64,000 bases of DNA from Gammaproteobacteria bacterium (GTDB taxonomy: Bacteria; Pseudomonadota; Gammaproteobacteria; GCA-001735895), in contig JASJCI010000031.1 of assembly GCA_030066085.1 (NCBI GenBank), positions 39,626-103,625 of the forward strand, given 5' to 3'. The notes below the pieces were generated by a model. The model was not told the origin of the DNA. It saw nothing but the letters and a program-made list of their open reading frames with translations, and made no database searches. A program made the position numbers and the translations under genes. Shown here in pieces: positions 3,486 through 57,742 of this stretch. Each line of letters begins with the position of its first letter. Within the stretch, counting starts at the first letter, position 1.

Positions 3486-4315
3486 AGCTGCGTTTCGCCA
3501 AGATGCACGGCCTCGGTAACGATTTCATGGTGATCGACGCGGTGCGCCAGTCCTTCGCGCCGCGCCCCGAGCTGGTGCGTCGCTGGGCCGACCGCTTCGC
3601 CGGCGTCGGTTTCGACCAGCTGCTGCTGATCGAAACGCCGCGCGGCGACGAGGCCGAGTTTCGTTACCGCATCTTCAACGCCGATGGCGGCGAGGTGGCG
3701 CAATGCGGTAACGGCGCCCGCTGCTTCGCGCGCTTCGTGCGCGAGCAAGGCCTCAGCGACAGCGACGTGATCCCGGTCGAGACCAATACCGGCCTGTTGC
3801 GCCTCGAGCTCGTCGACCAGGCCCGCGTGCGGGTCGACATGGGACAGCCGCGCTTCGAGCCGGCCGAGATACCGTTGCGCGAAGACCGGCGACGCGACCT
3901 CTATATCACCGAATACGACGGGCGCGAGATCAGTTTCAGCGCACTGTCGGTGGGTAACCCGCACATGGTGATCCCGGTCGATGATGTCGATACCGCCGAG
4001 GTCGAAAAAATCGGTGCTTATTTCGAAGGCCACCCGATGTTTCCCGAGCGGGCCAATATCGGCTTTATGCAGGTGCTGGACCCCGAACACTTTCGCCTGC
4101 GGGTATTCGAGCGCGGCGTCGGCGAAACCCGGGCCTGCGGCAGCGGCGCCTGCGCGGCGATGGTGGCCGGCGTTCAGCTGGGTCTGCTGCACGAGCGCGC
4201 CTGCGGCCAGTTGACCGGCGGTGAACTCATTCTGGAATGGCAAGGCGAGTCAAAGCCCGTTATGATGACCGGCGATACGGCAATGGTTTACCGGGGTGAA
4301 ATCGAATATGACTGA
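3482..4315 (+). CDS. dapF: diaminopimelate epimerase
   Basis: 277 aa; MHGLGNDFMVID and catalytic Cys motifs (GNGARC, ACGSGA). Confidence 0.9.
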   Translation: MKLRFAKMHGLGNDFMVIDAVRQSFAPRPELVRRWADRFAGVGFDQLLLIETPRGDEAEFRYRIFNADGGEVAQCGNGARCFARFVREQGLSDSDVIPVETNTGLLRLELVDQARVRVDMGQPRFEPAEIPLREDRRRDLYITEYDGREISFSALSVGNPHMVIPVDDVDTAEVEKIGAYFEGHPMFPERANIGFMQVLDPEHFRLRVFERGVGETRACGSGACAAMVAGVQLGLLHERACGQLTGGELILEWQGESKPVMMTGDTAMVYRGEIEYD

Positions 4316-10014: not shown

Positions 10015-11682
10015 ATGCGCAACCTGTTTCGGCTGATCGCAATCAACTTCACCGCGGCGCGTTTCGGGCTCGACGAGATCGTGCTGTCGATTCACTTTTT
10101 CCGCCCGCTGTACCTGCTCGGCCTGGTGAATCCGTTCAACTGGTTTCGCGACCGCAGCCAGTCGCAGGCGGTGCGTCTGCGGCTGTGTATCGAGGCGCTG
10201 GGACCGATATTCATCAAGTTCGGCCAGGCGTTGTCTACCCGGCGCGACCTGTTCGGCGACGAGATCACGGATGAACTGGAGAAACTGCTCGACCAGGTAC
10301 CGCCGTTCAGCTGGGCGGAGGCGCACGCGATTCTCGAAAGCCAGCTCGGCGCGCCGCTGGATAGCATATTCGAGAGCTTCGACCGCCAGGAAATCGCGTC
10401 GGCATCGATTGCGCAGGTTTACGCGGCCCGGCTGATCGGCGGCGAAGAGGTCGTGGTCAAGATCGTACGCCCGGGAATCGAGCGTCGGATTCGCAAGGAC
10501 ATCGGACTGTTGATGCAGCTGGCTCGCCTTGCCGAGCGTTACTGGGACGAGGCGCCGCGAGTCAAGCCACTGCAGGTCGTGCGCGAGTTCGAAAGCACCA
10601 CCCTGAACGAACTCGACCTCGTGCGCGAGGCCGCTAACGCAAGCGAATTGCGCCGCAACTTCGAGGATTCAGCCGACCTGTACGTGCCGCGTGTCTACTT
10701 CGACTACTGCAAACCCCGCGTGATGGTCATGGAGCGAATCCGCGGTATTCCGGTAACCGACATCGAGTCGCTCAGGGCGGCCAATATCGACCTCGAGGTG
10801 CTTGCGCGCAAGGGCGTGGAAATTTTCTTCACCCAGGTTTTTCGCAACAATTATTTCCATGCCGACATGCATCCCGGCAACATCTTCGTCGACCCGGGCA
10901 ATCCCGCGGATCCGCAATATATCGCGGTCGATTTCGGCATCATGGGATCGCTGTCGACCAGCGATCAGCGTTATCTCGCGGAAAATTTCGCCGCCTTTTT
11001 CAACCGTGACTACCGCCGCGTGGCCGAGCTGCACGTCGATTCCGGCTGGGTCGACGCGGATACGCGCATCGACGAATTCGAGGCCGCGGTGCGCAGCGTT
11101 TGCGAACCGATGTTTCAGCGTCCGCTGGCGGAGATATCCTTCGGCCAGCTCCTGTTGCGCCTGTTCCAGACCGCGCGCAAGTTCAACATGGAAATCCAGC
11201 CGCAACTGCTCCTGCTGGAAAAAACCTTCCTCCACATCGAGGGCATCGGGCGCCAGCTTTACCCGCAGCTCGACCTGTGGACCACGGCCAAGCCTTTCAT
11301 CGAGCGCTGGCTGTCGGAGCAGCTGGGCGCGCGCGCGCTGGTAGAGGGATTCAAAAAGAACCTGCCGTACCTCGCCGAGCATCTGCCGGATCTGCCGCAG
11401 CTTGCGGTCCGGGCCATCACCAACATCGCGAAGGGTGAGCTGCACGTCGCCTTGCGACCCCGGCAGGTCGACGAATTACGCCGCGAAATCCGCCGCGCCA
11501 ACCGGCGTAACGTGCGCGCCATCATCGGCTCGGGTTTCGTCGTAAGCGCCAGTATCGTGCTCGGCCTCGACGGGCTGGCACCGGTCATGGTCGGCGATGG
11601 CCGCTGGCTGGTGCCGCTGTTCAGCGCGGTGCTGTTCATCCCCGGCTTTTACCTGCTGGCCAGCAGTTATCTCGACGACTGA
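10015..11682 (+). CDS. ubiB: ubiquinone biosynthesis regulatory kinase-like protein UbiB
   Basis: 555 aa ABC1/ADCK atypical kinase motifs (ASIAQVY, HADMHPGNIFV, DFGIMG), C-terminal TM helices. Confidence 0.9.
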   Translation: MRNLFRLIAINFTAARFGLDEIVLSIHFFRPLYLLGLVNPFNWFRDRSQSQAVRLRLCIEALGPIFIKFGQALSTRRDLFGDEITDELEKLLDQVPPFSWAEAHAILESQLGAPLDSIFESFDRQEIASASIAQVYAARLIGGEEVVVKIVRPGIERRIRKDIGLLMQLARLAERYWDEAPRVKPLQVVREFESTTLNELDLVREAANASELRRNFEDSADLYVPRVYFDYCKPRVMVMERIRGIPVTDIESLRAANIDLEVLARKGVEIFFTQVFRNNYFHADMHPGNIFVDPGNPADPQYIAVDFGIMGSLSTSDQRYLAENFAAFFNRDYRRVAELHVDSGWVDADTRIDEFEAAVRSVCEPMFQRPLAEISFGQLLLRLFQTARKFNMEIQPQLLLLEKTFLHIEGIGRQLYPQLDLWTTAKPFIERWLSEQLGARALVEGFKKNLPYLAEHLPDLPQLAVRAITNIAKGELHVALRPRQVDELRREIRRANRRNVRAIIGSGFVVSASIVLGLDGLAPVMVGDGRWLVPLFSAVLFIPGFYLLASSYLDD

Positions 11683-28042: not shown

Positions 28043-28281
28043 AAGCTCGAAGACAGTTTTCTGTCGGTAATTCACCGGGCTCGCCGCCAGGTTGCCAGCC
28101 GAACGCACGAGGGACCAAAACAGGTTCTGTGCCCGAAGCGGTCTCCGGGAACACTCACACCAGGGGCGTTCGCCTGAAAGCGGGCCCCAGTCCCGGACCT
28201 GGCACTCAGAATCGCGCCCCCGGCCGGGCATTAACGCCGAGATTGACAATCATTAGACCGGGGCGTCAAATCGACGGCACT

Positions 28282-29292
28282 ATGAACGAACAGGCAACAC
28301 CAGCACCGGCGGCACTATTAGACGTGGGCAGGTTTGATCCGAAGTGCGCCGAATCGTCCTGGACACTTCCGTCAACGTGGTATTTCGATGAACAAATCTA
28401 CGCCCTTGAACAAAGCCGCATATTCAGCAAGACGTGGTGTTACCAGTGCCATAAGGGGGATGTAGCCAGTCCGGGCGATCGTTGTTACGGCAATGTGGCA
28501 GGTCAACCCATTGTCATCTGGCATGAGCAAGACCATGGCCTGCATGCCATAAATCTTACCAATCAGCGAGCCATATCTATCGAAACTTATGCTGGTTTCG
28601 TGTTTGTGAACCTGGATCCCGCTGCGTTGCCGCTAAGGCAACAGGCCGGAAAGTTCATCGATGACATGTATCGCTGCTGTCCACGATTGGACGAGCTGGT
28701 TCGCGTGCAGCGTATCGAGCGTGAAGTCGGCGCCAACTGGAAAACCCTGATCGATAACAACCACGAGTGCTATCACTGCGCCTTCAATCACAAGTCGTTG
28801 ATGCAGCTTGTCGACTACGAAAGCCAGGCGGTCTGGAGTGATGACGGCATTACCTTTAGTCACGAGGTCAAGCGCAAACAACTCGACAATCCAGCTTATG
28901 CGCTAAATCCCGACGAACTCAGGCAGGACTCACTATTTGGCTTCATTTGGCCAACACTGATCCCGCTGTGGTTCCCGGGCTCCCCAAGCGCGGTCTTGTT
29001 TCAGGTGATACCGAATGGCCCTGAAAGCAGTATCGCACGGCATGATTTTTATTTTCTCGATACAGGGATGAGCAGCCAGGAACAGGATTTTGTTGATTAT
29101 ATAGACAAGGTACTGGTACCCGAGGACGTGACTTTGTGCGAATCGGTGCAGAGAGGACTGCGGTCGCGTGGTTACCGACAGGGCAAGCTGATTGTCGATC
29201 GCTCACGACCTGATTTCTCCGAGCACCACGTGCATTTTTTTCAGCAGTTTGTCTATCAGGCGTTACTCGAAGCCAAAGCAGCAGTTCCATAG
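28282..29292 (+). CDS. aromatic-ring-hydroxylating oxygenase alpha-subunit homolog with degenerate (ligand-less) Rieske domain
   Basis: 336 aa; N-terminal Rieske-fold region aligns to RHO alpha subunits but all four ligands are replaced (CxH box read as LTNQRA, CxxH box read as ETYAGF); catalytic-domain mononuclear Fe motif retained (NWKTLIDNNHECYHCAFNH); lower GC than flanks. Confidence 0.6.
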   Translation: MNEQATPAPAALLDVGRFDPKCAESSWTLPSTWYFDEQIYALEQSRIFSKTWCYQCHKGDVASPGDRCYGNVAGQPIVIWHEQDHGLHAINLTNQRAISIETYAGFVFVNLDPAALPLRQQAGKFIDDMYRCCPRLDELVRVQRIEREVGANWKTLIDNNHECYHCAFNHKSLMQLVDYESQAVWSDDGITFSHEVKRKQLDNPAYALNPDELRQDSLFGFIWPTLIPLWFPGSPSAVLFQVIPNGPESSIARHDFYFLDTGMSSQEQDFVDYIDKVLVPEDVTLCESVQRGLRSRGYRQGKLIVDRSRPDFSEHHVHFFQQFVYQALLEAKAAVP

Positions 29293-29517
29293 CGGGCAAC
29301 CGGCAAATCCCTTCTTTATTCATGGAATCATGTGACAGCAGGCAATACCGCCGTTGACAGTGGCCAAATTGTGTCTGTTTGCTTGCCAGGTATCTGGCGA
29401 GATCCAAAGACTTTAGAGGCCATCTTTTTCCTCAACATCACTCCTCCAACGGGCGTATGATTAACTGGACCGGCTGTATCCGCCGGCACGTGAATTTCAG
29501 GGGCCGAGGACAGCGGA

Positions 29518-30330
29518 ATGGGCAACATTTCTGATCCACCGGGGGGTAGCTACGCCTTCAGCCAAAATCCTGACCGTGCGCGTGAGCTGGACCGCCTGCG
29601 CCACCAGGCGCTGGCCGCGTGGCCGATGGAGGAGGCCTGGCTAAAGAATCGGGGCCTGGCGGACGGGATGCATGTGCTCGATATCGGCTGCGGGCCGGGG
29701 TTCGTCAGCGAGAAGCTCGCACGGCTGAATCCTGCCGGGGTGACCGTCGGTCTCGAGCCGGATCCCGAACTTGCGCACCTCGCTGGCAAGCGCTTCGACG
29801 CTATCCCGGGACTGTCGCTGCACCAGGGCAGCCTGGCACATAACCATCTCCAGGAGAGTTATTTCGATCTCGCTTATGCGCGGTTCGTAGCGCAACACTT
29901 CGGGTCTCCGCAGGCTGAAATGGCACATATTTTTCGACTCCTCAAGCCCGCTGGTCAGGTTGTGCTGGCGGACGTGGACGACGGCCTGACCCTGGTGTAT
30001 CCCGAGCTGCCGGAGCTACTCGAGGTCATGCGGCTTTCGGACAAACTCCAGGCCGAGGCGGGCGGGGATCGCCGGGTTGGACGAAAGTTACCCGCATTAC
30101 TTACCGCGGCAGGCTTCACCGATGTCGGCTTCGACATTTTGCCTTTCACGAGTCGCCAGCTCGGCCGTCACGCCCTGTTCGACCTGGCATGGTCATTTCG
30201 TCTGCACCGGATCGAACAACTTACCGGCGCCGACAACAAGCGCCTGGTCGAAAAAGTGAAGGACTTCTTCAGCAGCCAGGACTGGTATGGCGTCACCTGC
30301 GTGATAGCCGCATATGGTGTCAAACAGTGA
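29518..30330 (+). CDS. class I SAM-dependent methyltransferase
   Basis: 270 aa; motif I VLDIGCGPGFVSEKLA, motif post-I/II present; lower-GC island. Confidence 0.8.
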   Translation: MGNISDPPGGSYAFSQNPDRARELDRLRHQALAAWPMEEAWLKNRGLADGMHVLDIGCGPGFVSEKLARLNPAGVTVGLEPDPELAHLAGKRFDAIPGLSLHQGSLAHNHLQESYFDLAYARFVAQHFGSPQAEMAHIFRLLKPAGQVVLADVDDGLTLVYPELPELLEVMRLSDKLQAEAGGDRRVGRKLPALLTAAGFTDVGFDILPFTSRQLGRHALFDLAWSFRLHRIEQLTGADNKRLVEKVKDFFSSQDWYGVTCVIAAYGVKQ

Positions 30331-31484
30331 CTGCGGTGGCGCCCGATGCACCGGAGCCGGTATCACTCGCCCGCACGTCGACGCAGCGCGAGGCGGTGTA
30401 TCGACTTAGATACGACGTGTACATGCGCGAGCTCAGAAAGGGGTTCCTGGGCGATGTGGATCACGAGCACTGCAGGGTTCGGGATGCGGAGGACGAACAA
30501 CAGGACGTCAGCATCTTCTACACCGGGACCGAAGAGGACATGACCGGCTCGCTGCGGCTGCAGGTCTGGGATCCTGGCCGGATTCCGGACGACATCGTGC
30601 AACGTTTCTCACTGCACCTGTTCCCCGGTATCGAGGCGTACAAGGTGAGCGAGGCGGCACGACTGGTTGTAAGACCGGGCATGCGCGGCGGGCGTCTGCT
30701 GGACTCGCTCGCCCTCGCCGCGTGCGAGCATGCAGTGGTCAACCACGGTGTCTTCGTCTGTTTCCTGTACTGTTCGCCAGGTCTTGTGCGTACCTTTATG
30801 CGTCTCGGCTTTCAGCCTTACCCGGGCTACGTGATACCGAACGAGGACGGGATTCGGCTACCCATGTTCGTAGTGTTAACCGACCTCGAGCATCTCGATG
30901 CTGTCGGCTCACCGCTGGCACCGCTCATGGCACGCCACCTTTCCGCCGACACCGCGCCTCCTGTCAGGTCTGTTTTCCTGCAGGCAATGAGCGATCAGCC
31001 ATACCACTACGAAACCCGTGCGGCGCGGGTCTGGCAGGAAGTGCGAGACCAGCTTCAACCTGGTCCCGGGAACCGCTCTCCCTTGCTGGAGGGGATCTCG
31101 GCCAGCGATACCGAGGTGCTTTGCCACTGCGGCTTTATCATGGAGATCCCCGCCGACAAGGTGGTCATAAGAGAGGGCCTGGTGGAACGGGAGCTCTACC
31201 TGGTTTTACGCGGCGAATACGAAGTTCGCATAGGAAACAGGGTGCTCGGGGTGCTGGGCGTGGGTGACGTGCTGGGAGAGATGTCGTTTTTCGATAATCC
31301 GGGCGAACGTGTGGTCACGGTCCGCTCGTTGACAGCCGGACGCGTCATGGTACTGGAGCGCCATTTCCTCGAACACCTGGCTCCCTCCCATCCGAGACTG
31401 GCGTCTCGCCTGCTAATGAACCTTGGGCGCATCCTCTCGCGACACCTGGCCATCGCGCTGCGGACCTGCCCGGGCGTAGACTAG
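30327..31484 (+). CDS. LuxI/FeeM-type N-acyl amino acid synthase domain fused to a C-terminal cyclic-nucleotide-binding (CAP-type) domain
   Basis: GTG start overlaps the MTase stop (GTGA). N-terminal half matches Acetyltransf_5/autoinducer-synthase-like NAS signature (AVYRLRYDVYMRELRKGF...DEQQDVSIFY...SEAARLVV...RLGF). C-terminal about 120 aa is a cNMP-binding beta-barrel (LYLVLRGEYEV...GVGDVLGEMSFFDNPGERVVTVRSLTAGRVMVL). Confidence 0.65.
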   Translation: MTAVAPDAPEPVSLARTSTQREAVYRLRYDVYMRELRKGFLGDVDHEHCRVRDAEDEQQDVSIFYTGTEEDMTGSLRLQVWDPGRIPDDIVQRFSLHLFPGIEAYKVSEAARLVVRPGMRGGRLLDSLALAACEHAVVNHGVFVCFLYCSPGLVRTFMRLGFQPYPGYVIPNEDGIRLPMFVVLTDLEHLDAVGSPLAPLMARHLSADTAPPVRSVFLQAMSDQPYHYETRAARVWQEVRDQLQPGPGNRSPLLEGISASDTEVLCHCGFIMEIPADKVVIREGLVERELYLVLRGEYEVRIGNRVLGVLGVGDVLGEMSFFDNPGERVVTVRSLTAGRVMVLERHFLEHLAPSHPRLASRLLMNLGRILSRHLAIALRTCPGVD

Positions 31485-32356
31485 GGCCTGTTCGGTCTCA
31501 GCATCTCGAGCAGAGATCCGACGTCATTTGTTGCCAACCCGAGATCTACCGCCCTGCCGAAGAGTTGCCGGGCAAACGCGGACACATCGGTGCGGTATCC
31601 AGTTTCCTGCTGGAACTCGATCATCAGGTCCGCAATCTGGACCCATACCCCGATCGGCGCATCCGATGAATCGAGGCCACCGTTTTCGATTTTGCGGAGA
31701 CTCCCCATCAGCGCTTGCGCGTCATAGGCGGTATTTGTCGGCAAGTCTCGCACCAGCTCCTGCAACGATATGCCCGCTGCCTCACAGAGTGCTGCGCCAT
31801 TCATGATGCCGATGGTCATACCGAGCGATCCAGATAAGGCCGCCAGGTTCAGAGCAGACGATTTTGCGGGATCGGATCCCAGGTACCTGGCCTGCGGTGT
31901 ATATTCCTTGAGCAACGGTTCAGCCGCATCGTAGGCGGCTTTATCGCCGGCCAGCAGCAAGGGAAATTCATCACCACCTATCTGGTTTGGATAGGCCACT
32001 ATCTCACCATCCAGGTAGGCGGCACCGGCCCGTTTTGCCCAGTCACTGGCTGATCGGGACAGCGTGGGTGAACCACTGGAAAGCTGGATCAGTATCCGCC
32101 CCTTTAGCGCAGCCATGCACTCCGGGGTAGCCAGTAACGACGCCGTTGTTGCGTAATCACTTACGCAAACAACGACCATGGGGCTCGCGGATATTGCTTC
32201 GGCCGGCGTTGCTGCAACGGTGACATTGCCGACAGCGAGCGGCAGCGCCTTGTCGCTGGTGCGGTTCCAGACAACGATTTCGCGACCGAATTTCGCCGCG
32301 GTATCAGCCAGGGCAAACCCCATGGCACCCAACCCGATGAAAGAAACTTGCGCCAT
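31481..32356 (-). CDS. NAD(P)-dependent beta-hydroxyacid dehydrogenase family (HIBADH/6PGDH-NAD-binding) oxidoreductase
   Basis: 291 aa; MAQVSFIGLGAMGFALA dinucleotide-binding motif; convergent 4-nt overlap with the preceding gene. Confidence 0.8.
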   Translation of the reverse strand: MAQVSFIGLGAMGFALADTAAKFGREIVVWNRTSDKALPLAVGNVTVAATPAEAISASPMVVVCVSDYATTASLLATPECMAALKGRILIQLSSGSPTLSRSASDWAKRAGAAYLDGEIVAYPNQIGGDEFPLLLAGDKAAYDAAEPLLKEYTPQARYLGSDPAKSSALNLAALSGSLGMTIGIMNGAALCEAAGISLQELVRDLPTNTAYDAQALMGSLRKIENGGLDSSDAPIGVWVQIADLMIEFQQETGYRTDVSAFARQLFGRAVDLGLATNDVGSLLEMLRPNRP

Positions 32357-32452
32357 TCCGATATCCCCTCGTACACCCCGCCAGTCTCGACCAGCATGAC
32401 GCCCGGTCGAGTGACATGCAAGCCCGCATAATCAGGGGGGATCGATATCGAT

Positions 32453-32480
32453 TGATTTATCTATCGTGATTTATCTATCG
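32453..32480. repeat. 14-bp tandem direct repeat TGATTTATCTATCG x2 in promoter region of the dehydrogenase gene
   Basis: seen directly, about 100 nt upstream of the minus-strand start at 32356; AT-rich, candidate regulator-binding direct repeat. Confidence 0.55.
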
Positions 32481-32639
32481 GCCGGGTGTCCGCCAGCCTC
32501 GTACGAGTGTCGGCCCGGTAGACGGCGTGTCCCGGGTTTCTGCAACCGGCGACACCCTGTCGGGCACTATTTTTTCAGCCGCCTGTTTTGCCAGTCACTG
32601 ACAACCAATAATCGCATCGATTTCCCGGGCTTCTGTGAT

Positions 32640-33551
32640 TTAGCGGCACTCGGTTACCAGCTTCTTTACCAGCATCCTGCGCCGGTCTCTGAGCTCTTCA
32701 CCCAATGACGCCGTGTAACCCCGGCTCATGCGGTCATCGATGCTTTCGATTTCGGCCTGGTAGTTTTCCCTGCAGCGCTCGATTCGTGCCTGCTCTTTTT
32801 CGTTCTTCTTTCGTTCGCGCGCCTGGTCCCGCTCCTGGTTTCCCGCGTCGTCGCCTTGCAAGCCATAGCCAGCCGCGTTGCCCGAATTATCGATCGGGTA
32901 CTGTCGTGCTGCGCCCTGGTCGAACAGCTGCTGCAGTCGCATCGCCTCTTTTCGTTGTTCATCATCGCAACTAAAGATCATTTGCTGGAATTCTCGCGGA
33001 AAATCCTCACATGAAACCGTGCCGAAAGCCTGCGCGTTGCACCTGGCAACGGTGAGCTGTGCAAGCCTGTCGGGTTGCATGGTTTCCGAGTGTTTGAACG
33101 AGTAGACGTAGTTGATTACTCCGAGGGTACTTCGCGAAATGGAACTGGCGCCGCCATAGCGATCGAACAGCTGCTGAGTGTCGAGGCCGGAACGCATGTG
33201 TCCGAAAATCACCTGCGAAAACGCGCCGGCAAACTTGCAGTCTTCCATCTGCACCGGTTTTTTGCCGTTCTTCAGCAGCTTGTCGGTTTTCTCGTTTTTT
33301 CTACACGGTTGCTGGGAGTACGTGACGTCGCCATTTTCATCGATGCACTTGTAGGTTGCCGCCATGACATCCGCTGACAACGACAGCACAAGCAGCATTG
33401 AATAAACAGCCGCCAGGGCAACTGTCGACGACCCCTTAAAGCTGCGACTCAGTTCGCGGGATACAGGCAACCCGGACACTTTTTTTGCTGGCTGCAGGTT
33501 CACGAAAGCAGCGGCCTCCTGATTACTACCGGAGCGCGACCTGTCGATCAT
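32640..33551 (-). CDS. DUF4124-domain exported protein
   Basis: signal peptide (MLLVLSLSADVMA) then DUF4124 motif ATYKCIDENGDVTYSQQPC; Cys-rich middle; charged coiled-coil C-terminus; true start is probably the internal Met at about 33398. Confidence 0.55.
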   Translation of the reverse strand: MIDRSRSGSNQEAAAFVNLQPAKKVSGLPVSRELSRSFKGSSTVALAAVYSMLLVLSLSADVMAATYKCIDENGDVTYSQQPCRKNEKTDKLLKNGKKPVQMEDCKFAGAFSQVIFGHMRSGLDTQQLFDRYGGASSISRSTLGVINYVYSFKHSETMQPDRLAQLTVARCNAQAFGTVSCEDFPREFQQMIFSCDDEQRKEAMRLQQLFDQGAARQYPIDNSGNAAGYGLQGDDAGNQERDQARERKKNEKEQARIERCRENYQAEIESIDDRMSRGYTASLGEELRDRRRMLVKKLVTECR

Positions 33552-33642
33552 GGGCGTGATACTCCGGGGGCAAAAACAGATTTGCTTCTTGCTGGATTAT
33601 AGTCCCTGTCCCGATGCCTGCCCCGGGCCGAGTTCAGGCCGG

Positions 33643-34926
33643 CTAGACAGATCCGAGCATTTCCTCGACAGCAGCGATTTCGGACCTGGATTCCTCGATA
33701 AAACTGATGCTGTCGCGGGCGGTGAATCCAAGCTGCAGTTTCAGGAACGCGGGCATCTTCGAAAGCGCCGGCAGACGTTTCGTGGCCGATGTGCCCAAAA
33801 GGCTGTAGTAGCGGGCAACCAGCACCAGGTCGCACAGGTCGGCCTGGTCGCGATGGTTGCGAAACCAGTTGCGTGATTCTTCGCCAACCGTGACGATTTC
33901 TTCACCCAGGTTCCACCGGAAGAGCAACATCCCATTGATCTGGGCATGCAGATCACGAATGGTTTGATCGAGCGCGGCATCGTCGCCGTAGAGATCGCTG
34001 TGCTCCTGCGCATAGTTCAGGATGGCGATGATACCGAGGTCGCTTAACAGGCCCGCCATCTGCGCCATTTCCGGGTCGAATTTGCCGGAGCGCGCGGCAA
34101 GCACGCGACTGAATGCCGAGATCCTGCGGCTGTTTTTCCACAGCAGCTGCATGCGTTTTTGCATGGCGCTCGATTTCGACCGGAACAGTTGCGTGGCCGC
34201 GTAAATCATGATCTGTTTTCGAATGACGTCCATGCCCATGCGCACTATGGCCTGCTGCAGGGTTTCGATTTGCGCATTTCCGCGGTACAGGGCGCTGTTC
34301 GCGGTCTTGAGCAGCTTGGCCGATATTGCGGGATCGGACTGGATCAGCCCGGAAACCTGCGCCATGTCGTAATCATCATCGGCAAACAGCTGCTGGATCT
34401 TGTGCACCACGTCGGGCATGATCGGCAGCGTGATGCTGCCATTGCTGATATCCATGCACAGGCTGATGGTGAGTCGATTGGCTTCTTCGGACTGCTCGAT
34501 CAGCTCGACATCCATTTGTCCGTTGGTCGCCTCGTCGACCAGCGAGAGCTCGGTCAACAGGTCATGGGGAATCCGGAGATATTCGACAGGCGAAACAGCT
34601 TCGACGTCATACAGGCTCGGGCGAATCTTTGCCACGGGCTCGAGATTGCCGTCATTTTCCACCGGCACAGGGCGCTCGGTGCCGTCGCCGTCGCGGCAAA
34701 TGGCTTCACCCTGCAAAAAGTACAGGCTGTAATCGCCCGTATCGCCCCGGGCTATGATGCGCTGCCTCGGCTCCGCAACCTCGGTATCGAGCCTGTTGGC
34801 GAGCATATCCAGCTGTTCGTCGCTGAACAGGACCAGGTCCCTGATACGCCTGAAGACCGAATGGTCGAGCTGTTTGCTGCTGTCTTGCATATCCGCATTC
34901 CGTATACACACCATCACCTTCGGCAT
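33643..34926 (-). CDS. cyclic-nucleotide-binding-like domain :: HDOD signalling protein
   Basis: about 427 aa from ATG at 34926; N-terminal CAP-like barrel (LVLFSDEQLDMLANRLDTEVAEPRQRIIARGDTGDYSLYFLQGEA); C-terminal HDOD (LPIMPDVVHKIQQLF...VIRMGMDVIRKQ). Confidence 0.65.
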   Translation of the reverse strand: MPKVMVCIRNADMQDSSKQLDHSVFRRIRDLVLFSDEQLDMLANRLDTEVAEPRQRIIARGDTGDYSLYFLQGEAICRDGDGTERPVPVENDGNLEPVAKIRPSLYDVEAVSPVEYLRIPHDLLTELSLVDEATNGQMDVELIEQSEEANRLTISLCMDISNGSITLPIMPDVVHKIQQLFADDDYDMAQVSGLIQSDPAISAKLLKTANSALYRGNAQIETLQQAIVRMGMDVIRKQIMIYAATQLFRSKSSAMQKRMQLLWKNSRRISAFSRVLAARSGKFDPEMAQMAGLLSDLGIIAILNYAQEHSDLYGDDAALDQTIRDLHAQINGMLLFRWNLGEEIVTVGEESRNWFRNHRDQADLCDLVLVARYYSLLGTSATKRLPALSKMPAFLKLQLGFTARDSISFIEESRSEIAAVEEMLGSV

Positions 34927-35041
34927 GACAGGTGATCTCACTGTCTGTATCGGCTTTGTCCGGCCGGACTTGAAAACCGGTTTGCGACGGCGATAGCCGG
35001 GTAAGCGGCGGTTTTGGATGCCTCCGCTATTTCGGCCCGGG

Positions 35042-35920
35042 TTATCTCGACTTGCCGAGAACGACGTAGTTGCCGAGCAGCACGAGCAGAAAACCAAACC
35101 CGGCGCGCGGGGTCCACTGGTAATCCTCGAACAGGGTCGACAATCCCAGCGCAATCACCGGAAACAGGACCGCGGCGTAAGCCGCGCGGTCGGCGCCGAT
35201 ACGCCCGACCAGCGTCAGGTACGAGCCAAAGGCGAGGATCGATCCGAACAGGGCGAGGTAGAGCAGCGATACGGTGTATGCCGGCGCCGGATCAAAATTG
35301 AACGGTACCCCGCTGAACAGCGCGTACACGAACATGATCGCGGCGCCATAACTCATTCCCCAGGCGTTGGTCTGGATCACCGGCATGCCGGCGCGCTGGT
35401 TGCGCGCGGAGATGATGTTGCCGACCGACGCGAGCCAGGTGGCGCCGAGACACATCCACAGGCCCCGCCAGGTGTCGGCGCTGGCATCCACCGCGCTGAC
35501 TTCCGACCAGAAAACCGTTGCAATACCGCCGATCCCGATCGCCGCGCCGATAACGACACGGGCACTGACCCGGCTGCCGAGGAACAGCGCGCCGTTGACG
35601 ATATTGAGCAGGATCACGGTAGAAAACAACAGCGCGATGATGCCCGAGGTCAACAACCCGGTCGCCCAGTAGAACACGAGGTAATTGGTGGAAAACAGGA
35701 ACAGTCCCAGCAGCGCCATGTAGCCGTGTTGCACCCGGGAATACTTCAACGGGCGCCCGGTCAGCAGGCAAAACAGCAGCAGGATTACCGCCGCCAGCGC
35801 AAAGCGGTAAACCAGCGATACCTCCTCGGCGACGATACCGAGCTGGAACCTGATCGCGAACCAGGTGGAGCCCCAGATCAGCACCGCGGCCAGGTAGAGA
35901 CTGACCGAGTGGGTGTACAA
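35042..35920 (-). CDS. DMT-superfamily (EamA/RarD-like) transporter
   Basis: 10-TM duplicated EamA pattern; probable TTG start near 35920 just downstream of the kinase gene stop; the long track ORF is an over-extension. Confidence 0.7.
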   Translation of the reverse strand: MYTHSVSLYLAAVLIWGSTWFAIRFQLGIVAEEVSLVYRFALAAVILLLFCLLTGRPLKYSRVQHGYMALLGLFLFSTNYLVFYWATGLLTSGIIALLFSTVILLNIVNGALFLGSRVSARVVIGAAIGIGGIATVFWSEVSAVDASADTWRGLWMCLGATWLASVGNIISARNQRAGMPVIQTNAWGMSYGAAIMFVYALFSGVPFNFDPAPAYTVSLLYLALFGSILAFGSYLTLVGRIGADRAAYAAVLFPVIALGLSTLFEDYQWTPRAGFGFLLVLLGNYVVLGKSR

Positions 35921-50016: not shown

Positions 50017-50946
50017 TTATATCCAGGGTCGAGCCGAATAGATGAGTATCAGCGCGGTGAAAATCAAGAATGCCGCGAGCACGGCGCCGTGAGACATCCA
50101 TTTCTTGCGCCGAACGAGGCTTTCCTCGGGAATGGCTGACAGGATAAACGGACTGTTCTTGTCCTCCGCGCTGGCCAGCACGTGTTGCGGTTTGGCCTCG
50201 TCATGAATCTCCCGCTGTACCTCGCGACGTGCCGCGGCATAGATGTTCTGCCATTCATCCTTGCGAATCGTGCCGTCGCCGTCGACATCGAACCTTCCCA
50301 GGTGCTTCTGTGGCTGGAGGCGCCAGTCGGCGACGCGTTGCTCGACTCGCTTGTCGATATATTCCTCGGCCGGATTACTGTACACGGTGCGGAACCATCC
50401 AAGCGCATAGATCTCTGTCGCCGGGCGTATCAGTAGTTCGCGGAAACGGTATTTATGATTACCGAACGACACGTGCACCGTTTTGGCGGGAGGACGGCTC
50501 TTGGCGTCGGTATCGTGCCCGTACCAGGTCTTGCGCGTTTCCGGCACGACATGCGCGAAGTCCGGATCGACCACGCATTCACCGGTTTCGTCGACTATGC
50601 GGAACAGGTGTTCGCTGCAAAGATCGAGGATATTGCTCCAGCTGGTTCTTTTACCGGAACGCTGCTGGCGATCGATGGTGCAGTGATACCAGACGCAACG
50701 GCTGTTGCTGAAAGGCGAGACGATGACATCGTTCGGCAGGAACTCGGCCAGGCCTTTCAGTTCGACGTAACCCTGGGCCGCTGAACGAATCCTCGAGGTT
50801 GCCGTGGCATCCATCGAACGATAGCGCTTGTAGGTACCGTAGGCGAACACCACCAGGGCCAATAAAACAAACAGGAGGACTCCATTGAGCGCAACGTAGT
50901 CCTGCGCCGACATCCCTCCGACCTGTTGCTCGAGCCAGGGAAACAC
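50017..50946 (-). CDS. membrane protein with GIDE-like domain and an EF-hand calcium-binding loop
   Basis: N- and C-terminal TM helices; canonical EF-hand loop DVDGDGTIRKDE; architecture resembles bacterial GIDE (PF12483) proteins that pair with LemA. Confidence 0.45.
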   Translation of the reverse strand: MFPWLEQQVGGMSAQDYVALNGVLLFVLLALVVFAYGTYKRYRSMDATATSRIRSAAQGYVELKGLAEFLPNDVIVSPFSNSRCVWYHCTIDRQQRSGKRTSWSNILDLCSEHLFRIVDETGECVVDPDFAHVVPETRKTWYGHDTDAKSRPPAKTVHVSFGNHKYRFRELLIRPATEIYALGWFRTVYSNPAEEYIDKRVEQRVADWRLQPQKHLGRFDVDGDGTIRKDEWQNIYAAARREVQREIHDEAKPQHVLASAEDKNSPFILSAIPEESLVRRKKWMSHGAVLAAFLIFTALILIYSARPWI

Positions 50947-50960
50947 CGCAATGCTTCGAA

Positions 50961-51536
50961 TCAGGTATTGAAGAGTTGCCTGACGTTGACGTCGGCAATT
51001 TCACCGGCAGAGAATTCCAGCAAATCGCGCGGCCCGAACCCGAGCAGGCGGGCTACGATGATATCGGGAAACTGCTCGATGCCGATGTTATTGATGTTGA
51101 CGGACTCGTTGTAAAACTCGCGGCGATCAGCAATGGTGTTCTCGAGCGTGCTGATTCGAGTCTGTAAATGCTGAAAATTTTCGTTAGCGCGCAATTCGGG
51201 ATAGTCCTCTGCCAGCGCAAACAGCTGGCCCAGTCCCATACGCAAGGCACCCTCGGCAATACCGAGTCCGGCAACGTCCTGGCTCTCGCGTGCCTGCGAC
51301 ACCTGTGCGCGTGCCTGCATGACTTTCTCGAGTGTTTCCTGTTCGAACTGCATGTACTGCTTGCAGGTCTCGACCAGCTTCGGTATTTCGTCGTGACGCT
51401 GTTTCAGCAGGACGTCGATATTCGACCATGCCTTGGAAACGTTGTGCTTTAGCCTGACGAGGTGGTTATAAATACTGACCGCGTAAATTGCGATGATGAC
51501 GATAGCTGCCCAGAAAATGATGCTGCCGATATCCAT
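50961..51536 (-). CDS. lemA: LemA-family membrane protein
   Basis: 191 aa; N-terminal TM plus conserved LemA core. Confidence 0.8.
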   Translation of the reverse strand: MDIGSIIFWAAIVIIAIYAVSIYNHLVRLKHNVSKAWSNIDVLLKQRHDEIPKLVETCKQYMQFEQETLEKVMQARAQVSQARESQDVAGLGIAEGALRMGLGQLFALAEDYPELRANENFQHLQTRISTLENTIADRREFYNESVNINNIGIEQFPDIIVARLLGFGPRDLLEFSAGEIADVNVRQLFNT

Positions 51537-51612: not shown

Positions 51613-55096
<3,484 letters not shown>

Positions 55097-55113
55097 CGAA
55101 TCCCCGTACGGAA

Positions 55114-56214
55114 TTACAACCGCATCGGCATGACCACGTACAGGCTGGATTCGTCCTCGCTGTCGTTGATCACGCAACTGCTGTTGGCATCCTTGAGCTT
55201 GATCTTGACCTTGTCTGACTCGAGTACGTTGAGTACGTCGATCAGGTAGGTTACGTTGAAACCAATCTCCATGTCGGCCTCGTCGTAACTGACCGGAAGT
55301 TCCTCTTCCGCTTCTTCCTGGTCCGGATTGTTTGCCTGGATAGACAGGTTGCCCGGTGACAGTACCAGGCGAATACCGCGGTACTTTTCGTTCGACAAGA
55401 TCGAGATTCGACTCATGGACTGTTTCAGTACATCGCGCTCGACCTCGAGCATACGATTGCCGTCTAGCGGAATAACTCGCTGGTAATCGGGGAACTTGCC
55501 GTCAATCAGCTTGGTCGTGAACACGAGCGATCCCAACTCGACCCGCAGGTGATTCGGGCTCAGCACTATCCGCGCTTCCTCTTCGCTCCCGTCGAGTAAC
55601 CGCGACAGCTCGAGTACGGCTTTACGCGGAATGATCACCTGGCGCTCTTCACCAATGCCCGTATCCATGGCTACCTCGCTCATGGCGAGCCGATGACCAT
55701 CCGTAGCGACGAGCCGAAGGCAGTCGGATGAAATCTCCATCAAGATACCGTTCAGGTAGTAGCGCACGTCCTGCTGGGCCATCGCGAAACCGGTTTTTTC
55801 GAACAGGTTCTTGAACCTTTTCCGCGGTACGCCAAAACTGTGTTGGGCGTCAATCTCATCGAGGCCCGGGAAATCGCTGGCGGGCAGGGACGCGAGGGTA
55901 AAACGACTGCGGCCCGAAGTGAGCGATACCTTGTTGTCCGCGATCGCGAGATTGATACTCGCGCCTTCCGGAAGTGCCTTCGAGATATCGAGCAGCTTTC
56001 GCGCTGGAATAGTAGTATCGAAATCTTCCGCCGTATCCGCGGTTAATGCAGCAACCATTTCGATTTCAAGGTCCGTTGCGGTCAAACGTAAGTCACCACC
56101 CGTAGACTTCAGTAGGACATTGCCCAGTATCGGCAAGGTCTGCCGCCGTTCCACGGCTCCGATTACCTGTTGCAAGGGCGCAAGAAGATCTTCTCTTTTA
56201 ATAGTTGTCTTCAT
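55114..56214 (-). CDS. dnaN: DNA polymerase III beta sliding clamp
   Basis: 366 aa three-domain clamp. Confidence 0.9.
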   Translation of the reverse strand: MKTTIKREDLLAPLQQVIGAVERRQTLPILGNVLLKSTGGDLRLTATDLEIEMVAALTADTAEDFDTTIPARKLLDISKALPEGASINLAIADNKVSLTSGRSRFTLASLPASDFPGLDEIDAQHSFGVPRKRFKNLFEKTGFAMAQQDVRYYLNGILMEISSDCLRLVATDGHRLAMSEVAMDTGIGEERQVIIPRKAVLELSRLLDGSEEEARIVLSPNHLRVELGSLVFTTKLIDGKFPDYQRVIPLDGNRMLEVERDVLKQSMSRISILSNEKYRGIRLVLSPGNLSIQANNPDQEEAEEELPVSYDEADMEIGFNVTYLIDVLNVLESDKVKIKLKDANSSCVINDSEDESSLYVVMPMRL

Positions 56215-56340
56215 TTATCTATATAAGGTTACTGTTTTTAACAATGGCTTTAACACTGTATAACTAAAATAAGTCTTTTACTTTCAACGACTTATTTCCC
56301 AATAGCCGGCTAGAAAACTGTCCGAAACCGTTTTCCAACC

Positions 56341-56395
56341 TGTGGATAACAGCGGGATAAATATGTCTGCCTGAATTATCAAATGCTTATCCACA
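56341..56395. promoter_or_regulatory. pair of inverted consensus DnaA boxes (TGTGGATAA ... TTATCCACA) in dnaA-dnaN intergenic region
   Basis: exact 9-mers at 56341-56349 and 56387-56395. Confidence 0.6.
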
Positions 56396-56425
56396 GGTCG
56401 TCCAGCGAATGTTACGCTTTTCGCG

Positions 56426-57742
56426 TCAATTACTCAGCATCCGTGCGAGGATTTCGAAATCCTCGTCGATTCTGCGATCCTCCTGGCGTAACTCGTCTAC
56501 CTTGCGGCAGGCATGAAGCACCGTTGTATGGTCCCTGCCGCCGAAGGCACTGCCGATTTCGGGCAAACTGTGTCTCGTCAGTGCCTTGCACAGTGCCATG
56601 GCTATTTGCCGTGGCCGCGTGATCGAGCGATTTCGCCGGCTCGACAACAAATCGGCCACGCGGATCTTGAAGTATTCCGCGACCAGTTTCTGGATGTTAT
56701 CGATAGTGATTGGCTTGTCCTGTACCGCCAGCAGCTCCTTGAGTGCCTGGCGGGCAAAATCCTGTGTAATCGGTTCACCGGTAAACCGGGCATGTGCCAC
56801 CACTCGTTTCAAAGCGCCCTCCAGCTCCCTGATGTTGGACTTGAATCGCTCGGCGATAAAAAAAGCGACGTCATCCGGCACATCGGCGTCGGCCTGTTCG
56901 GCCTTGCTATTGAGAATGGCCACGCGGGTTTCGAGGTCGGGCGGTTTTATATCGACCGCGAGCCCCCAGCCAAGACGTGAGCGGATGCGGTCCTCGAGGC
57001 CTTCGATCTCCTTCGGAAAACGGTCGCAGGTGATCACCATTTGTGCATGGGCTTCGTACAGCGAGTTGAAAGTGTGGAAAAACTCTTCCTGCGAGCGGCT
57101 TTTGTCGGCCAGGAACTGGATATCATCGATCAGCAGTGCATCCAGGCTGCGGTAGGAATTCTTGAAATCGTTCATGCGGCTGTGCTGCAAGGCCTTGACC
57201 ATGTCGGACACGAAACGCTCGCAATTGACGTAGAGAATATTCGCCTCGGGATTGCTCTCCCTGATCTGGTTGCCAATGGCGTGCATCAGGTGGGTTTTGC
57301 CGAGACCTACGCCACCGTAAATGTACAGGGGGTTGTACTCCGAGCCTGGATTGTTGCCGACCTGGATCGATGCGGCTCGCGCCAGCTGGTTCGACTTACC
57401 CTCGACGAAGTTGCGAAAACGTTGCGCATCGTTCAGACCCGATGATCGATAGGCACGCGGTGGCGGGGCGTTGACCCCTGCTTCTTCAGGCTCCGGGCGG
57501 CTTTGCGATCCGATCGCGAGGCTTACCGAGATGGACTTGGTGTCGTCGAGGCTGGTGACCAGCTCGCGAATGCGGTCGAGGAAGTGCTTGCGCACCCAGT
57601 CCATGACGAACCGGTTCGGCGCCAGCAAGCGCAATGTGTTCATTTCCTGTTCCGCCTGCAGGGGCAGGATCCAGGTGTTCAACTGCTGTTCGCTTATTTC
57701 CCCCTCGAGGCAGGCCACGCACTGTTGCCAGATCGAATTCAA
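56426..57742 (-). CDS. dnaA: chromosomal replication initiator protein DnaA
   Basis: 438 aa; AAA+ ([10 protein letters not shown]), C-terminal DnaA-box-binding HTH. Confidence 0.95.

Follow-up and report, generated by a model that had tools for sequence, protein, structure and literature searches.

A methyltransferase and a predicted cyclic-nucleotide-gated N-acyltransferase within a mosaic insertion of a gammaproteobacterial genome

Gene content of the locus

We analyzed a 64,000-nucleotide stretch of DNA from a Gammaproteobacteria bacterium (contig JASJCI010000031.1 of assembly GCA_030066085.1, positions 39,626 to 103,625 of the forward strand; hereafter the window), in which about 7 kb carrying six genes (genes 1 to 6) separate the 3′ ends of two convergent core genes, dnaQ-CBS-DUF294 (hereafter dnaQCBS) and eamA (Table 1). 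The window was also identified with contig JARPNO010000311.1 of the metagenome-assembled genome GCA_029979825.1. Among these six is a pair formed by a class I S-adenosylmethionine (SAM)-dependent methyltransferase (MT; gene 2) and a protein (gene 3) in which a FeeM-type N-acyl amino acid synthase domain (NAS) is fused to a predicted cyclic nucleoside monophosphate (cNMP)-binding domain, an architecture that we denote NAS::cNMP. Pfam searches sustain five of the six domain assignments made in the initial annotation of this DNA; for the sixth, gene 6, the HDOD domain stands, while the cNMP domain assigned along with it scores below threshold.

Table 1. Coordinates of the insertion, its genes and its flanks, in positions of the window (aa, amino acids).
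Feature	Position	Strand	Evidence or remark
Core left flank: DnaQ-like exonuclease-CBS-DUF294 protein, 698 aa	25946..28042	+	Pfam RNase_T, CBS, DUF294, DUF294_C; syntenic in 30 metagenome loci
Strain-specific insertion, as assigned from synteny	28057..35041	.	Convergent junction of dnaQ-CBS-DUF294 (stop 28042) and eamA (stop 35042)
Gene 1: CntA-like alpha subunit of a Rieske oxygenase, lacking the [2Fe-2S] binding segment, 336 aa	28282..29292	+	Pfam Ring_hydroxyl_A (PF00848) 95.5 bits
Sigma-70-like promoter match upstream of the MT gene	29432..29461	+	Single consensus match, not above chance; weak
Gene 2: class I SAM-dependent methyltransferase, 270 aa	29518..30330	+	Pfam Methyltransf_23/11/25/31/12
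Gene 3: FeeM-type N-acyltransferase domain (~30393-30940) and C-terminal cyclic-nucleotide-binding domain (~31080-31460), 385 aa	30327..31484	+	GTG start overlaps the MT stop
Gene 4: beta-hydroxyacid dehydrogenase/imine-reductase-like NAD(P) oxidoreductase, 291 aa	31481..32356	-	Pfam NAD_binding_2 72 bits, RedAm-like_C 39.5 bits
Gene 5: DUF4124 protein, exported, C-terminal tail charged; start uncertain, length up to 303 aa	32640..33551	-	Pfam DUF4124 38 bits
Gene 6: HDOD protein, 415 aa, its N-terminal domain CAP-like and divergent	33643..34890	-	Pfam HDOD 140 bits
Core right flank: EamA-family transporter, then thiK-like kinase and thiQPB	35042..35920 (EamA)	-	Pfam EamA; syntenic in relatives

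The methyltransferase and NAS::cNMP pair

The N-terminal domain of gene 3 is recovered by the Pfam FeeM model (PF21926, GNAT clan) with 31.8 bits against a gathering threshold (GA) of 27, and the C-terminal domain by cNMP_binding with 44.6 bits, in agreement with the initial description of an NAS fused in-frame to a CAP-type cNMP-binding domain. PF21926 is likewise precomputed on nearly all homologues of gene 3. A structural model of the two-domain protein reached a pTM of 0.88, and its N-terminal domain displays the enlarged GNAT fold of the FeeM/LuxI type. Among the aligned homologues, E109 is almost always conserved and R112 without exception. A sequence profile of the domain run against the PDB did not reach FeeM (2g0b), retrieving instead ElaA and weak matches to acyl-homoserine lactone (AHL) synthases, among them BjaI and TofI (E 0.045-0.75), and the FeeM assignment therefore rests on Pfam and the fold.

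Several features set gene 3 apart from characterized acyltransferases of this fold. It is only 13% identical to FeeM, with no detectable sequence match to it in the PDB; FeeM lacks a C-terminal cyclic-nucleotide-binding (CNB) domain, which gene 3 possesses, and is partnered with the enzymes of the fee cluster, whereas gene 3 is partnered with a methyltransferase. Unlike the LuxI-type AHL synthases (e.g., TofI, LasI, RpaI and BjaI), gene 3 gave no match to Autoind_synth (PF00765) at E ≤ 0.01, and Pfam detected neither an autoinducer-binding nor a GerE domain, which would mark a LuxR-type receptor, among the island proteins. The CNB domain of gene 3 matches those of PKG, CRP and PKA-R, and its phosphate-binding cassette, GEMSFFDNPGERVVTV, retains the Gly, Glu, Arg and Thr residues, with length and spacing as in CRP. 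Across 20 gene 3 homologues, G317 and E318 are invariant and R328 nearly so. Judged by these residues, the cassette (G-E ... R-x-A/V-T) is intact.

The fusion is widespread. A hidden Markov model (HMM) search of 1.84 billion representatives assigned 956 clusters at 50% identity to the family (E ≤ 1e-30), and among the best 150 of these almost all are full-length two-domain proteins of 360-400 aa; we found no paper in the literature describing an NAS::cNMP fusion family. Searched with a profile of the fusion, the genome collection yielded 145 species-level genomes that encode it, from which 80 loci were retrieved. Neighbors were identified by scanning co-directional flanking open reading frames (ORFs) against Pfam, together with phmmer; clustering of neighborhoods by longest ORF was abandoned, as in high-GC loci it selected ORFs of the antisense strand, and the MT cluster escaped it.

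By this approach, an orthologue of the MT was found directly adjacent to and co-directional with the fusion in 16 loci (13 upstream and three downstream; phmmer), to which tblastn added L010 and L050. These MT-NAS loci span Gammaproteobacteria, Chromatiaceae, Thermodesulfobacteriota, and delta-proteobacterial and Myxococcales metagenome-assembled genomes (MAGs). In two proteins, P0022 (667 aa) and P0038 (661 aa), all three domains are united as MT-NAS-cNMP fusions. In the window, the start of gene 3 was corrected to the GTG at 30327, which overlaps the MT stop by 4 nt (GTGA) and yields a protein 100% identical to a 385-aa database entry (P0001). On account of the adjacency, the two fusions and the start/stop overlap, there is good evidence that the MT and NAS::cNMP constitute a functional pair, predicted to be translationally coupled, and the initial attribution of the MT to the synthase is well founded (adjacency in ~18 loci, fusion in two proteins). 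The promoter match upstream of the MT gene (Table 1) lies in a stretch conserved with another MT-NAS locus (tblastx homology to L050 from 29398). In that locus, on a complete chromosome (CP070646.1), an apparent truncation of the NAS was traced to a run of N in the record at ~10265-10360 and is not a real disruption. A further arrangement is displayed by L016 (6028-7964 and 15226-17112), and alike by L017 and L018, all from MAGs that bear the label 'Enterobacterales' or 'proteobacterium': the MT + NAS::cNMP pair occurs twice, the two copies being divergent and ~8 kb apart, one in the order MT-NAS and the other NAS-MT.

Two other kinds of neighbor recur, the remainder beyond these and the MT being singletons. 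A cNMP-NTE-patatin phospholipase adjoins the fusion in 4-6 loci; at L001 (7655-11158; also L002, L003 and ~3-5 further genome loci), NAS::cNMP lies directly beside a 756-aa protein that combines two cNMP-binding domains, an NTE P-loop domain and a patatin phospholipase domain. Going by their domains, the fusion and its patatin neighbor would both be nucleotide-gated lipid enzymes. In three genome loci, a GAF-adenylate/guanylate cyclase is encoded directly downstream of NAS::cNMP and may provide a dedicated supply of its nucleotide ligand.

We consider it reasonably probable that the pair in the window is best read as a cyclic-nucleotide-gated N-acyltransferase with a methylated product, set within a mosaic insertion. 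The FeeM/LuxI-like GNAT domain shares the fold of enzymes that take a fatty acyl chain from acyl-ACP (acyl carrier protein) or acyl-CoA and attach it to the amino group of amino acids or related amines. The C-terminal CNB domain is predicted from the conservation of its motif to bind cAMP or cGMP and, by analogy with the action of cAMP on the GNAT protein acetyltransferase Rv0998, would allosterically switch the acyltransferase on or off, while the co-translated MT would add a methyl group either to the amine substrate or to the product. This could yield an N-methylated aminolipid or the methyl ester of an N-acyl amino acid, the lipid output of the cell would thereby be tied directly to an intracellular second messenger, and the product itself may be a membrane lipid, a surfactant or a signal that diffuses.

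Certain observations weigh against such a pathway. About three quarters of the NAS-cNMP loci have no adjacent methyltransferase, so that methylation is not obligatory for the family. The matches of the MT are weak and unspecific (NCBIfam: BioC with 42 bits, UbiG and ArsM), and as regards its specificity, sequence searches of NCBIfam and the PDB returned nothing beyond generic class I matches. In addition, genes 4 to 6 could interact with the operon in this one strain through recent functional recruitment.

The recurrent adjacency of the fusion to cNMP-NTE-patatin phospholipases also speaks for a different role, namely the remodeling of membrane lipids. Here, the NAS would make a lyso-aminolipid in the manner of OlsB/GlsB, the MT would methylate its head group like OlsG, and the cNMP would set membrane composition in parallel with the cNMP-gated patatins found elsewhere. 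Such an OlsB/OlsG-like membrane-aminolipid role fits the patatin association about as well; the gene 3 protein is cytoplasmic with no linked exporter, and NCBIfam reports weak similarity to OlsB and to a PEP-CTERM-associated acyltransferase. However, the OlsB match, at 18.5 bits, falls far under the cut-off of 350, Pfam returns FeeM rather than an OlsB-specific model, and no OlsA-like second acyltransferase is adjacent; we rate membrane-lipid remodeling as possible but rather doubtful.

A precedent for a nucleotide-gated enzyme of the GNAT superfamily comes from mycobacteria, in which Rv0998 and MSMEG_5458 (MtKat and MsKat) are cAMP-activated GNAT protein lysine acetyltransferases. Like gene 3, Rv0998 holds a CNB and a GNAT domain in one polypeptide, with the CNB domain N-terminal in Rv0998 and C-terminal in gene 3; however, its GNAT domain is a Pat-type protein acetyltransferase, whereas that of gene 3 is FeeM/LuxI-like, and the two have no sequence relationship beyond the domains. 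That gene 3 is itself a cNMP-regulated acetyltransferase of proteins or small molecules, with the MT as an unrelated co-regulated enzyme, appears to us quite unlikely: the aligned length is larger for FeeM/LuxI-type enzymes (166-173 residues vs ~140), FeeM scores above the gathering threshold both in the window protein and in nearly all of its homologues, the AHL synthases BjaI and TofI figure among the weak profile matches, and a protein acetyltransferase would offer no easy explanation for the conserved MT fusion.

For the gated N-acyltransferase with a methylated product, a counterpart on the chemical side might be sought in N-acyl alanine methyl esters (NAMEs) from Roseovarius tolerans, the biosynthetic genes of which were reported as still unidentified (PMC11580390). 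The link from NAMEs to the MT-NAS pair would be one of chemical logic only, and the single Rhodobacteraceae match to the fusion is 23% identical, with no MT seen beside it.

A broader proposition, which we hold to be unlikely, is that this one protein, its output gated directly by the binding of cAMP or cGMP to the synthase itself, links a second messenger inside the cell with a lipid signal outside it, and that hundreds of environmental lineages possess such a link. If the reading as a gated N-acyltransferase is right, bacteria of many phyla would control N-acyl lipid synthesis by a sensor built into the synthase and not by transcription, and the Rv0998 principle of a cAMP-gated GNAT enzyme would be extended from protein acetylation to the production of lipids or signals.

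The insertion and its mosaic make-up

Scanning metagenomes with the DnaQ-CBS-DUF294 protein as the query recovered 30 syntenic loci. In at least 17 of these, gatB-orf-SDR-dnaQCBS is followed directly by convergent eamA-thiK-thiQ-thiP-thiB, with the DnaQ-CBS-DUF294 proteins 73-79% identical and the dnaQCBS and eamA stop codons merely ~8-170 bp apart. The nucleotide homology of relatives to the window breaks at 28056 and restarts at 35045, a few bases from both stop codons. Three closer relatives bear other cargo at the same site: a Sel1-repeat gene in L096 (98.5% nucleotide identity; 4127-4311), an ankyrin lipoprotein and a small outer-membrane barrel in L121 (87%; 778-1728), and an outer-membrane barrel and a glyoxalase-like gene in L124 (87.5%; 506-1679). 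The 7-kb segment is hence cargo of this strain at a hypervariable hotspot: as read from these alignments, 28057-35041 is strain-specific accessory DNA that has built up where the 3′ ends of dnaQCBS and eamA face each other.

Insertion has recurred at this junction, where no recombinase marks are visible. The whole 64-kb window is free of tRNA genes, 27.5-35.5 kb has no convincing direct or inverted border repeat and no Rfam family match, and none of the six island proteins has an integrase domain (Pfam). An accessory segment devoid of integrase, tRNA and border repeats had been proposed at the outset, and the checks of synteny, tRNA genes, repeats and domains bear this out. The segment resembles a classical integrase-mediated island in being absent from the locus in close relatives, and differs from one in having no integrase, tRNA target or flanking direct repeats. 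Plasmid origin was set aside, since PLSDB holds no match to the NAS protein or to the DNA of the whole island.

Synteny, rather than base composition, is the decisive evidence for insertion. The GC content is 57.8% in 28043-35041, compared with 61.4% in the rest of the window and 65-67% in the 4 kb on either side, and GC at third codon positions (GC3) is 0.59-0.72 in the six island genes vs 0.76-0.86 in the flanking core genes. The dip noted by eye in the initial annotation is thus correct in direction, GC being non-uniform across windows, and was overestimated in size (50-55%). It is also uneven: the oxygenase gene has 50-54%, the MT and NAS genes ~61% and genes 4 to 6 55-58%, with gene 1 the lowest of the island (53.7%, GC3 0.59). 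The window further includes the neighborhood of the replication origin, with gyrB, recF, dnaN and dnaA in classical order on the minus strand (51613-57742), and these genes have a GC content of 54-57% and a GC3 of 0.62-0.73. As core genes of the same window are equally low, composition alone is not diagnostic, and low GC was ruled out as proof of foreign origin.

The six genes were initially taken for a single cNMP-gated module of biosynthesis and sensing, in which the NAS produces a signal of the N-acyl amino acid or AHL-like kind, the oxygenase, the MT and the HIBADH-family dehydrogenase (gene 4) tailor it, and the cNMP::HDOD protein (gene 6) senses the same nucleotide. The genes are indeed contiguous within one insertion, GC3 lies below that of the flanks in all six, the classes of the three presumed tailoring enzymes are plausible for that task, and PF00027 is scored in some members of the HDOD family. 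Nevertheless, when all six island proteins were compared by tblastn with the retrieved loci over 10 kb around the fusion, homologues of the oxygenase, HIBADH, DUF4124 and HDOD proteins were found in none of the 81 loci outside this genome, which largely refutes the module. The conserved context elsewhere also differs gene by gene. The closest MT-NAS loci (77-84% amino acid identity) match this genome only over window positions ~29400-31500 and have flanks unrelated to the island (topoisomerase VI, phosphodiesterase, GCS2-CBS), and the cassette homology from other genomes ends at 31481-31484, where the stops of genes 3 and 4 overlap. Genes 4 to 6 lie on the opposite strand, with gene 4 converging on gene 3; their stops share 4 nt and therefore leave no space for a terminator between them. 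Further points against the module are the GC content that differs among blocks (53.7, 61 and 55-58%), the lack of an electron-input cluster in the oxygenase, and the lack of cNMP-contacting residues in the N-terminal domain of the HDOD protein. Taken as one pathway, the six genes are in our view very improbable.

Because the fusion loci lack the other four genes and the orthologues of the oxygenase and HDOD proteins occur in different contexts, the island is, as far as such comparisons can tell, a mosaic of at least four independent units, in which each minus-strand gene appears to have its own history and the MT + NAS::cNMP operon is predicted to be the only functional unit. The initial remark that no described system has this composition holds insofar as the composition is unique; the uniqueness is due to the mosaic and does not denote a new system. 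There is a lesson here for genome scanning: contiguity and suggestive domain names gave an attractive 'system', which a simple census of neighborhoods dissolved.

The minus-strand genes are individually less informative. Gene 4 has only weak NCBIfam matches and gene 5 has none; no homologue of gene 4 was found near any other NAS-cNMP locus, and none of gene 5 beside either the HDOD orthologues or the NAS loci. The start of gene 6 was corrected to the ATG at 34890, giving 415 aa like its homologues. Its orthologues (57-84% identity) have as neighbors either a second HDOD/HD gene along with genes of betaine catabolism, an APH kinase along with a hydantoinase, or BenE, and at the locus of the closest orthologue the homology is confined to the gene itself (33641-34890). 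The N-terminal domain of gene 6 matches cNMP_binding with 18 bits, below the GA of 27.5, some family members carrying PF00027. A family-wide motif, G..L.P.A..RPS, replaces GE...R[ST]A, with no Gly-Glu and a shorter loop. By this motif, the domain is a CAP-like fold and not a demonstrated cNMP receptor; with the phosphate-binding residues absent family-wide, gene 6 can hardly be counted as a matching receptor. The second cNMP domain of the island is hence doubtful, the Arg-Ser/Thr-Ala part of the motif being missing along with the Gly-Glu, and the matching cNMP-HDOD transducer proposed initially is not supported.

The oxygenase without a Rieske segment

Gene 1 finds its best sequence match (E 2.5e-45) and its best structural match (model TM-score 0.77) in CntA, the oxygenase subunit of carnitine monooxygenase (PDB 6Y8J). 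The Pfam Rieske model gives 15 bits, sub-threshold, and covers only the first 40 of 88 positions, and the alignment to CntA falls into two blocks that skip CntA residues 103-159. In an alignment of 19 sequences, the stretch of ~50 residues that gene 1 lacks coincides exactly with the CxH...CxxH segment. Invariant are E162, the bridging Glu, the iron ligands H165, H170 and D282, and many other residues of the catalytic domain, and the ligands align to those of CntA. Gene 1 thus keeps the bridging Glu and the His-His-Asp triad of CntA, Stc2 and GbcA, which are quaternary-amine Rieske oxygenases, and differs from CntA-type subunits, the Rieske ligands of which sit on the ~50-57 residues that are absent here. 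The initial description of a ligand-less Rieske domain beside an intact mononuclear-iron motif is correct in essence, the segment itself being absent. With both Rieske ligand motifs missing, the subunit cannot take electrons in the canonical way.

The loss is not confined to this genome. The CxH..CxxH motif is absent in 30 of the 117 close homologues of gene 1; 21 of these form a clade with the window protein, and the others occupy at least four further places in a neighbor-joining tree of the catalytic domain. This distribution suggests that the Rieske cluster has been lost repeatedly under continued selection in CntA-like oxygenases. The Rieske-less subunits could conceivably function as oxygenases supplied with electrons by a non-canonical partner. 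We found no literature on Rieske-less oxygenase alpha subunits, the matches all being on bc1 complexes. Their repeated origin poses a small, separate puzzle of electron transfer, unconnected to the MT-NAS unit.

Orthologues of gene 1 with 61-64% identity (L090, L094 and L095) are adjoined by a divergent FA_hydroxylase gene (PF04116) and by a convergent aromatic ammonia-lyase (HAL) gene and an OCD/mu-crystallin gene. None of these FA_hydroxylase, HAL and OCD genes is present in the window, and as its usual neighbors are absent, gene 1 is an orphan here. Elsewhere in the window, a LemA gene is followed by one for a GIDE-like membrane protein (50017-51536, minus strand). LemA-DUF2207 pairs also adjoin the loci of Rieske-less oxygenases in L090 and L095, a link to the window pair that is probably coincidental.

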